Source: a virus (taxonomy: Duplodnaviria; Heunggongvirae; Uroviricota; Caudoviricetes). Taken from it: DNA of 7,132 bases. Each line of letters begins with the position of its first letter. Positions within the stretch are counted from its first letter, which is position 1. Shown piece by piece: positions 1 to 3,000 of the stretch. Where the stretch lies: IMG/VR virus record IMGVR_UViG_2711768074_000022. One strand, 5' to 3'. The position numbers are program-made.

Positions 1-3000
1 GATGATGACTATGCCGGTATCAGCACCGGTGGTCGTGTGCTGGCGGTGAACAGCCAGACCCGGACGCTGACGCTCGACCGTGAAATCACGCTGCCATCCT
101 CCGGTACCACGCTGATAAGCCTGGTTGACGGAAGTGGCAATCCGGTCAGCGTGGAGGTTCAGTCCGTCACCGACGGCGTGAAGGTAAAAGTGAGCCGTGT
201 TCCTGACGGTGTTGCTGAATACAGCGTATGGGGGCTGAAGCTGCCGACGCTGCGCCAGCGACTGTTCCGCTGCGTGAGTATCCGTGAGAACGACGACGGC
301 ACGTATGCCATCACCGCCGTGCAGCATGTGCCGGAAAAAGAGGCCATCGTGGATAACGGGGCGCACTTTGACGGCGAACAGAGTGGCACGGTGAACGGTG
401 TCACGCCGCCAGCGGTGCAGCACCTGACCGCAGAAGTCACCGCAGACAGCGGGGAATATCAGGTGCTGGCGCGCTGGGACACGCCGAAGGTGGTGAAGGG
501 GGTGAGTTTTATGCTTCGCCTGACCGTGGCCGCGGATGACGGCAGTGAGCGGCTGGTCAGCACGGCCCGGACGACGGAAACCACATACCGCTTCACGCAA
601 CTGGCGCTGGGGAACTACAGGCTGACAGTCCGGGCGGTAAATGCGTGGGGACAGCAGGGCGATCCGGCATCGGTATCGTTCCGGATTGCCGCACCGGCAG
701 CGCCGTCACAGATTGAGCTGACGCCGGGCTATTTTCAGATAACTGCCACGCCGCATCTTGCGGTTTATGATCCGACGGTACAGTTTGAGTTCTGGTTCTC
801 GGAAACGCGGATTACCGATATCAGGCAGGTTGAAACCACAGCCCGCTACCTTGGCACGGGGCTGTACTGGATAGCCGCCAGTATCAATATCAAACCGGGC
901 CATGATTATTACTTTTATATCCGCAGTGTGAACACCGTTGGCAAATCGGCATTCGTGGAGGCCGTCGGTCGGGCGAGCGATGATGCGGAAGGTTACCTAG
1001 ATTTTTTCAAAGGCAAGATAACCGAATCCCATCTCGGCAAGGAGCTGCTGGAAAAAGTCGAGCTGACGGAGGATAACGCCAGCAAACTGGAGGAGTTTTC
1101 GAAAGAGTGGCAGGACGCTAACGATAAGTGGAATGCCATGTGGGGCGTCAAAATTGAGCAGACCAAAGACGGCAAACATTATGTCGCGGGTATTGGCCTC
1201 AGCATGGAGGACACGGAAGAAGGCAAGCTGAGCCAGTTTCTGGTTGCCGCTAACCGTATCGCGTTTATTGACCCGGCAAACGGGAATGAAACGCCGATGT
1301 TTGTGGCGCAGGGCAATCAGATATTTATGAACGACGTGTTCCTGAAGCGCCTGACGGCCCCGACCATTACCAGTGGTGGAAATCCACCGGCATTTTCCCT
1401 GACGTCAGACGGAAAGCTGACCGCTAAAAATGCGGATATCAGTGGCAGTGTGAATGCGAACGCCGGGACGCTCAACAATGTCACGGTAAATGAAAACTGT
1501 ACGATTAAGGGCATGCTGGAGGCGACTCAGGTCAGAGGTGACTTCGTTAAAGCTGTATCCAAATCATTCCCGAAACAGGCTGGTACGTGGGGTAACACGG
1601 AAACACCAAACGGGACGGTTACAGTCACCATCAGTGATGATCATAACTTTGACCGTCAAATCATTATTCCGCCCATTATCTTTAACGGAATAGCGTATAG
1701 CTATCCGGGAAGTGGTAATAACCCGGGAGGTACAAGTTACACGGGTTATGGTTTTGAAGTTCGCAAAAACGGTGTATTAATCGCATCCAGAGAAACTAAA
1801 GGGGCCATTCCCGGTAGTTACAGTGCAGTTATTGATATGTCTAGTGGTGGTAGCGTCACTCTGGAGTTTAAGATTTTCCAGAAAGGCAATCAGGGGGCAG
1901 GCAATATCACCGACTGTACGGTGATTGTGACCAAAAAAGCGGCTTCCGGCATCAGTATTCGTTGAAATATTTATAACCCCAATAAATGGCGTCAGGAATG
2001 ACGCCTTTTTTATTGCAGAAAAGCGAGAGGTAATTATGCGTAAAGTTTGTGCAGCCATTTTGTCCGCAGCCATCTGTCTGTCCGTATCCGGTGCGCCTGC
2101 ATGGGCGTCTGAACATCAGTCCACACTGAGCGCGGGGTATCTTCATGCCCGGACGAACGCTCCCGGTAGCGATAATCTTAACGGGATTAACGTGAAATAC
2201 CGTTATGAATTTACGGACACGCTGGGGCTGGTGACGTCATTCAGCTATGCAGGAGACAAGAATCGCCAGCTTACCCGTTACAGCGATACCCGCTGGCATG
2301 AAGATTCCGTGCGTAACCGCTGGTTCAGCGTAATGGCGGGGCCGTCTGTGCGCGTGAATGAATGGTTCAGCGCGTATGCGATGGCGGGTGTGGCTTACAG
2401 CCGTGTGTCGACTTTCTCCGGGGATTATCTTCGCGTAACTGACAACAAGGGGAAAACGCACGATGTGCTGACCGGAAGTGATGACGGTCGCCACAGCGAC
2501 ACCTCTCTGGCGTGGGGAGCTGGCGTGCAGTTTAACCCGACCGAATCCGTGGCCATTGATATTGCTTATGAAGGCTCCGGCAGTGGCGACTGGCGCACTG
2601 ACGGTTTCATCGTGGGTGTCGGTTATAAATTCTGATTAGCCAGGTAACACAGTGTTATGACAGCCCGCCGGTTCAGGCGGGCTTTTTTGTGGGGTGAATA
2701 TGGCAGTAAAGATTTCAGGTGTACTGAAAGACGGCACAGGAAAACCGGTAGAGAACTGCACCATTCAACTGAAAGCCAGACGGACCAGCAGCACGGTGGT
2801 GGTGAACACGGTGGCCTCTGAAAATCCGGATGAAGCCGGTCGTTACAGCATGGACGTTGAGTACGGTCAGTACAGCGTCATTCTGTTGGTGGAGGGCTTC
2901 CCGCCGTCACATGCCGGGACCATCACCGTGTATGAAGATTCTCAACCCGGTACGCTGAATGATTTTCTCGGTGCCATGTCGGAGGATGACGTCCGGCCGG

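Follow-up and report, generated by a model that had tools for sequence, protein, structure and literature searches.

The last part of gene J in a 7,132-nt stretch of caudoviral DNA (IMG/VR record IMGVR_UViG_2711768074_000022; the whole stretch is called the window below) raises the question of which outer-membrane receptor this lambdoid phage would use, and whether this part of the gene has the same history as the sequence upstream of it. J encodes the tail-tip protein, and its tip domain decides which cells adsorb the phage. That the J C-terminus determines receptor choice, and that a tip of the phage 434 type redirects lambda to OmpC, belongs to decades-old textbook genetics that now also has structural support. 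A preliminary description of the window held that J matches lambda J closely until about residue 490 of the open reading frame (ORF), near nt 1500, that the final ~150 residues differ and are encoded by less GC-rich DNA, and that this reflects a swapped receptor-binding domain (RBD) implying a receptor other than the LamB of lambda. We fetched the lambda (NC_001416) and phage 434 (OL657226) sequences and aligned their J genes with that of the window. The comparison indicates that the end of J is very probably an RBD cassette of the 434 type, homologously recombined onto a near-lambda shaft, with OmpC as the most likely receptor.

Nucleotides 1-1965 form the 3' part of the J gene. Reading frame 1 stays open from the first nucleotide up to a stop codon at 1963-1965, and the 655 J codons within the window are uninterrupted. 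In the alignment, they span lambda J residues 483-1132, so that residues 483-1131 of lambda gpJ in PDB entry 8iyk are covered end to end. This amounts to the 3' 58% of the gene, the 5' end (482 codons, 42%) lying outside the window. In the colinear loci L010, L015 and L016, the J homologue is 1137 amino acids long and is located downstream of homologues of L, K and I. The Pfam domains follow each other in the order expected for J, i.e., Ig_J, the fibronectin type III (FNIII)-like Ig_J_second, Phage_Tail_Tip (shaft and prism) and Ig_GpJ_C, and all four score above the curated cut-offs. A lambda-like context is also apparent downstream, where J is followed by lom, by the gene of a side tail fibre and by a small gene for a fibre or assembly protein.

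The central and distal shaft of J (1..1504, plus strand; lambda J residues 483-984) comprises two Ig/FNIII-like domains, an alpha-helical shaft and the beta-prism central straight fibre, as assigned from Pfam and the alignment with 8iyk. In most blocks of 30 residues, the shaft protein is 93-100% identical to both lambda J and 434 J. Against lambda J, block identities amount to 87-100% up to window residue 480, 70% for residues 481-510 and 23-47% thereafter, and DNA identity drops from 0.88-1.00 before nt 1500 to 0.38-0.60 after it. A maximum chi-square scan against lambda placed the breakpoint at nt 1505 (chi2 575.6; mean 5.0 and maximum 14.8 in 200 permutations), with 4.6% mismatches to its left and 50.8% to its right. 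Since residue 490 of an ORF starting at nt 37 corresponds to nt 1504, the earlier estimate of the boundary was right to one codon. Both C-terminal peptides quoted in the preliminary description occur in window J, and the alignment with lambda J and the J proteins of other lambdoid phages bears out that the final ~150 residues differ and are not as conserved with lambda as the part upstream.

The two sides of the breakpoint differ in composition and in substitution pattern as well. The GC content is 0.571 for nt 1-1500 and 0.465 for nt 1501-1962, and the GC content at third codon positions (GC3) is 0.676 and 0.455, respectively, which agrees with the lower GC that had been noticed at the end of the gene. 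The equivalent C-terminal segment of lambda has a GC content of 0.553 and a GC3 of 0.627. Because the end of lambda J is not GC-poor, the drop is a property of the cassette in the window and not of J ends in general. The synonymous distance to lambda (dS) increases from 0.14 upstream of the junction to a saturated value of 3.07 downstream, and the ratio of nonsynonymous to synonymous distances (dN/dS) is 0.11 upstream and 0.19 downstream. Rapid evolution of the protein in place would raise dN rather than dS, and the shift of dS and GC3 across the junction thus shows that the two sides have different histories. Position 1505 is a genuine mosaic junction with a recombination signature.

The segment to the right of this junction (1505..1965, plus strand, stop codon included) is identified as the RBD cassette of J, of the phage 434 (h434) type, by the breakpoint, a Pfam match, its identity to 434 J and structure modeling. 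PF12421 (Ig_GpJ_C, described as 'Tip attachment protein J, C-terminal receptor binding domain') matched residues 519-653 over profile positions 1-134 of 135, and its score of 81.8 bits exceeds the cut-off of 26.2. When the segment alone was compared with the chains of solved structures by phmmer, the best match was the entry named 'A8 gpJ 713' (E = 5.2e-24), and the lambda gpJ RBD was also found (E = 2.8e-17). Identity to the lambda RBD is 38% at the protein level and ~50% at the DNA level. The C-terminus therefore does diverge strongly from lambda, as the preliminary description had it, but it is not unrelated and is still homologous to the lambda RBD. An unrelated, non-homologous domain in place of the RBD was considered as well and is rejected by the phmmer, PF12421 and Foldseek matches.

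A model of the RBD was generated with AlphaFold2 from an alignment of 22 sequences that a single homology search had supplied. It is all-beta, with a predicted local distance difference test score (pLDDT) of 82.3; a single-sequence AlphaFold2 run on residues 461-654 gave a pLDDT of 51 and was discarded in favor of the alignment-based model. Foldseek matched the model to the closed lambda RBD (8xck_F; E = 2.4e-15, TM 0.72, probability 1.0) and equally to A8 gpJ (9wca_F; E = 2.1e-15, TM 0.72, probability 1.0), and the matches include 8xcj and 9wcb, with E values from about 1e-14 to 2e-15. The modeled domain thus has the Ig-like beta-sandwich fold of the solved lambda RBD. In the alignment of 22 sequences, a conserved scaffold (GTLNNVT…ENC, DD..FDRQ, KNG, IDMP.G.G, KK..GISI) is broken up by four hypervariable, indel-rich stretches, which would correspond to loops L1-L4 of the lambda RBD.

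The type of the cassette is apparent from its similarity to phage 434 J (UMO75286.1). Identity is 87-97% per 30-residue block and ~90% overall, high over the whole RBD, and the indels relative to lambda are the same in both proteins. The distances between the two RBDs are small (dN 0.041, dS 0.25, dN/dS 0.16), and nt 1-2100 of the window are 94-95% identical in DNA to both phage 434 and the sequence named 'Lambda h434 imm21'. Segment identities in phages are bimodal: in a tblastn search, 74 records were at least 90% identical and 169 below 60%, with none in between, and a protein search repeated the gap (86-97% versus 37-50%). J tips thus fall into discrete types, with the tip in the window being of the 434 type. 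Other RBD types share 38-50% identity with it. The LamB-specific lambda type is separated by four indels, and the A8 type, at 44-46% identity, shares the fold while being a different allele. The alignment also led us to reject the possibility that other RBD types are as close to the segment as 434 is. In this comparison of J C-terminal alleles, from which the Stx2c phage locus L009 was left out, the last ~194 residues of J differ at 2 positions from strain O55:H7 RM12579, at 3 from E2348/69 and at 17 from 434. The segment is thus the classical, long-known h434 allele and not a novel domain.

Related prophages were gathered by exact-protein look-ups with EspW and Lom; the same kind of look-up with the side tail fibre gave no match. 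One of them is a sister prophage in GCA_900449145.1 (L013), which shares its backbone and its EspW/NleG cargo with the window. It matches nt 1-1511 at 95.3% and nt 1927-7051 at 98.7% identity, with no similarity in between, and the gap holds a tip of the A8 type. In positions 12052-15481 of L013, J is split into four ORFs and the RBD is frameshifted close to its end, so that L013 is probably a decaying prophage; its effector cargo is still 98.7% identical to that of the window. In three further relatives (L011, L012 and L014), similarity to the window is confined to the part from nt 2549 on (97-99.6% identity). Their J proteins are ~70% identical and of another lineage, with an A8-like tip, and are accompanied by a Lom of 207 residues. 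The block running from the side tail fibre gene to the effectors (window 2549-7051) is 97-99.6% identical in these three despite the different J and lom alleles, and the cargo and side-fibre block moves independently of the tail-tip gene.

From the limits of similarity, one left and three right junctions can be placed. The left one (1505..1511), where the central straight fibre passes into the RBD, is defined by the chi-square breakpoint and by the position where similarity to L013 stops. For exchanges of the RBD only, the right junction is the conserved 3' end of J with the KK…GISI motif and the stop codon (1927..1965, plus strand), where similarity to L013 resumes at 1927 and the motif is kept across RBD types. 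A second right junction, at about nt 2014, follows a terminator-like element between J and lom (1988..2013, plus strand), which consists of the hairpin GGCGTCAGGAATGACGCC (1988-2005) and the T run TTTTTTATTG. Phage 434 has an annotated terminator at the equivalent place, and for the phages Tritos, ev207, PhiR63_1, PhiR11_1 and HannyBb, similarity to the window ends at nt 2014. The third right junction is found inside the 3' end of lom (2549..2555), where the matches to L011, L012 and L014 begin at 2549 and similarity to lambda returns at 2555, the divergence from lambda having extended across the intergenic region and the greater part of lom. The J tip and lom are therefore separable modules that were co-inherited in the window.

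The frequency of the two alleles was compared by megablast in 5426 complete Escherichia coli genomes. The 434-type segment (window 1500-1965) was found in 2113 of these (~39%), with 3 records matching at 99% or more. The best matches were O55:H7 RM12579 and a food isolate (both 99.4%) and the enteropathogenic E. coli (EPEC) strain E2348/69 (98.7%). The equivalent 450 nt of lambda were present in only 98 genomes (<2%), all with at least 99% identity, and the eight carriers among the matches listed are the laboratory strains K-12, B, BL21(DE3), C41/C43(DE3) and BW2952. The 434 type, and not the lambda type, is the common natural allele in E. coli, and lambda is the unusual one. The claim that the receptor-binding domain was exchanged, and hence that a receptor different from LamB is used, is supported by the break in dS and GC3, the ~90% identity to 434 J and the exchange seen in L013. 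The mosaic junction behind the word 'swapped' is real; the word itself is centered on lambda, of which the type is far rarer, and the exchange may have run in either direction.

Assignment of a receptor follows from the genetics of the 434 tip. When lambda is equipped with the J gene of 434, it binds OmpC, as 434 itself does (PMC3509688; PMC11101478). A 2026 preprint on receptor prediction deals with gpJ of Drexlerviridae and not with lambdoid J. Because the 434 type makes phage 434 and lambda h434 hybrids use OmpC instead of LamB, OmpC would be the likeliest receptor for the allele in the window. In the proposed mechanism, J would act as a trimer in which each C-terminal Ig-like beta-sandwich shows four variable loops at the distal tip, and these loops would enter a trimeric porin of the outer membrane at its extracellular mouth. 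In lambda, the tip spreads upon binding, and the movement passes up the beta-prism and the helical shaft and opens the tail (PMC11101478). Since the shaft in the window is lambda-like, the same transmission of the signal is expected, with only the receptor-reading loops being different; by this analogy, the signaling mechanism would be that of lambda, with OmpC replacing LamB. The RBD cassette is one of several discrete alleles that are traded among E. coli prophages at conserved junctions.

Several observations weigh against this assignment. About a dozen RBD residues differ from 434, clustered at positions 522-527, 537, 567-568, 579, 614-616 and 625-632. Furthermore, in the genome sequence of lambda h434 imm21, lambda DNA extends up to coordinate 17619 and 434 DNA begins at 17637 (J residue ~712), continuing across the tip, lom and stf. 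This delimits the host-range segment, but as the hybrid holds 434 DNA over the whole region, classical genetics does not single out the last 150 residues as the only determinant. In phage 21, a single J mutation was reported to add a new receptor (PMC11336670), which means that ~90% identity is no guarantee of the same receptor or of the same OmpC variants. The structure of the RBD is that of a modeled monomer, and the window covers the 3' 58% of J.

The alternative that survives best accepts the same 434-type cassette but supposes that loop changes have retuned it, to a non-K-12 OmpC variant group of pathogenic E. coli or to another porin such as OmpF or LamB. The differences from 434 lie mostly in the hypervariable stretches, i.e., in the same places that vary between RBD types, and positions that vary within the type are enriched in or near the segments that are hypervariable between types (17 of 47; rough Fisher p = 1.5e-4). 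The window has S567/Y568 and S579 where 434 has D/D and R, and its glycine loop IDM[P/S]SGGGS (614-616) is one codon shorter than that of 434, a length that recurs in one cat and one duck isolate. In addition, single J mutations alter receptor use in phage 21 (PMC11336670), and the use of a named variant, 'OmpC G17 from E. coli EDL933', in PDB entry 9wcb suggests that OmpC alleles matter. On the other hand, the dN/dS of 0.16 against 434 indicates purifying selection over most of the domain, 434 has the same scaffold and indel pattern, and no data point to a particular alternative receptor. We therefore consider retuning unlikely, and it is likewise doubtful that the loop differences are non-neutral and fit the allele to an OmpC variant group or a different porin of EPEC-like or enterohaemorrhagic E. 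coli (EHEC)-like hosts. If it were true, RBD alleles of the 434 type would co-diversify with polymorphic host porins, setting which strains exchange effector-carrying prophages.

Somewhat less probable still is that the cassette is a non-functional relic in a defective prophage and hence uninformative on current receptor use. Many lambdoid prophages of EPEC and EHEC are degraded, the J gene of the sister prophage is fragmented with a frameshifted RBD, and the annotation of the closest complete genome lists the counterpart of an nleG-like gene of the window (4388-4867) as a pseudogene truncated at its N-terminus; the first 42% of J and the remaining prophage lie beyond the window. Against this, the J codons in the window are all open, intact copies of lom, stf and the small tail-fibre gene follow, and dN/dS is low relative to both lambda and 434 (0.09-0.19). 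A relic would, moreover, be compatible with the identity of the segment as a 434-type RBD. The weakest alternative, that no exchange took place and the J C-terminus diverged in place from a lambda-like ancestor under rapid diversifying selection, could appeal to the fast evolution of RBDs and to a scaffold that is still alignable with lambda at 38% identity, but is rejected as highly improbable by the rise of dS from 0.14 to ~3 at a dN/dS of only 0.19, the change of GC3 from 0.676 to 0.455 at a transition only a few codons wide, the bimodal identities without intermediates, and the different cassette on the same backbone in L013.

The best match of the whole window among complete E. coli genomes has 97.1% identity, and the conserved part of J is itself a mosaic at a fine scale. 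Nucleotides 121-240 are nearer to lambda (0.98-1.00) than to 434 (0.88-0.92), and nt 781-900 are nearer to 434 (0.95-0.98) than to lambda (0.88-0.90). In nt 1261-1350 (J residues 421-450), all 30 residues are as in lambda J 903-932, including the equivalent of F924. The lambda J peptide 902-933 was reported to trigger HepS, a prophage-encoded abortive-infection nuclease (PMC13043305). As residues 421-450 cover this peptide except for its end residues, the J protein of the window is predicted to trigger HepS too, judging from sequence identity.

Downstream of J, lom (2036..2635, plus strand; Pfam Ail_Lom, E = 5e-121) encodes an Ail/Lom outer-membrane beta-barrel and is present as the 434-type allele, with a DNA identity of 87-100% to 434; identity to lambda stays at 38-77% up to about nt 2555. 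Next, stf (2694-4013), the gene for the side tail fibre, encodes phage_tail_N, Collagen and Phage_fiber_C domains. Its product has a region rich in alanine, serine and glutamate followed by a collagen-like Gly-X-Y run, with the best stretch of Pfam Collagen at residues 253-311, and the gene contains a 45-nt tandem repeat at 3645-3735, with a local GC content of up to 0.70. A small gene with a tail-fibre C-terminal domain follows (4015-4284; Phage_fiber_C at residues 28-89), for which the phage 434 annotation gives a tail fibre assembly chaperone. Phage_fiber_C thus occurs twice in succession, at the C-terminus of the side fibre (nt 3786-4013, residues 365-428) and in the small gene.

The remainder of the window (4388-7132) is type III effector cargo of low GC content (0.25-0.45). 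Besides the nleG-like ORF at 4388-4867, it contains espW (4997-6055, minus strand), which is intact with 352 residues in the window and frameshifted in the closest complete genome, and an intact nleG (6134-6784, minus strand). A bfpT-regulated chaperone-like (IpaB_EvcA) gene would begin near nt ~6967, as extrapolated from the coordinates of colinear loci. In the collection that was searched, 4915 blocks are indexed with an identical EspW protein.

Since the J tip sets the adsorption range, it also sets which strains can receive the downstream type III effector genes espW and nleG. The window adds no new concept on receptor choice by J, as the cassette is an ordinary, already-known host-range determinant. 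The gain is modest and twofold: the 434 type, and not that of lambda, is shown to be the common natural allele in E. coli (~39% versus <2%), and a clean natural exchange of cassettes at defined junctions is seen on an effector-carrying prophage that is otherwise 95-99% identical.

Among known systems, phage 434 and the h434 tip are closest to the window. They share the RBD type with its indels, and in phage 434 the lom allele downstream is also the same (87-100% DNA identity), as is the order of genes, J-lom-stf-small fibre gene, with type III effector cargo coming next. The cargo itself is different, with NleB, NleC and NleH fragments in 434 and EspW and NleG in the window, which further differs by the substitutions in mostly variable RBD stretches, the shorter loop and the mosaic upstream J. 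The lambda J RBD (residues ~985-1132; 8xck closed, 8xcj bound to LamB) belongs to the same PF12421 family, has the same fold and is located at the end of a near-identical shaft. It differs from the window by its 38% identity, four indels in loop regions, a GC content of 0.553 instead of 0.465 and LamB as its receptor.

The closest solved relatives of the RBD (46% identity) are the structures of 'A8 gpJ 713', released on 2026-01-28 as PDB 9wca (closed) and 9wcb (open, with OmpC G17 from E. coli EDL933). No paper describing these two entries was found in the literature collection searched, and their description here follows the entry titles. They show an OmpC-binding J tip of the same fold and family which, at 44-46% identity to the window RBD, is a separate allelic type and takes the place of the window cassette on the L013 backbone. 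As the title of 9wcb names a complex with OmpC, at least two tip types in this group of prophages appear to target OmpC. Two other phages, as described in the literature, have the same arrangement of a conserved J body and a divergent C-terminal RBD that sets receptor choice. For phi330 of EHEC, use of OmpC was established by knockout and complementation, and its RBD was reported to be 35-40% identical to both 434 and lambda (PMC12502783). For Gifsy-1 of Salmonella, use of OmpC was found in binding assays, with a C-terminal region reported to be 18% identical to lambda (PMC12312913).

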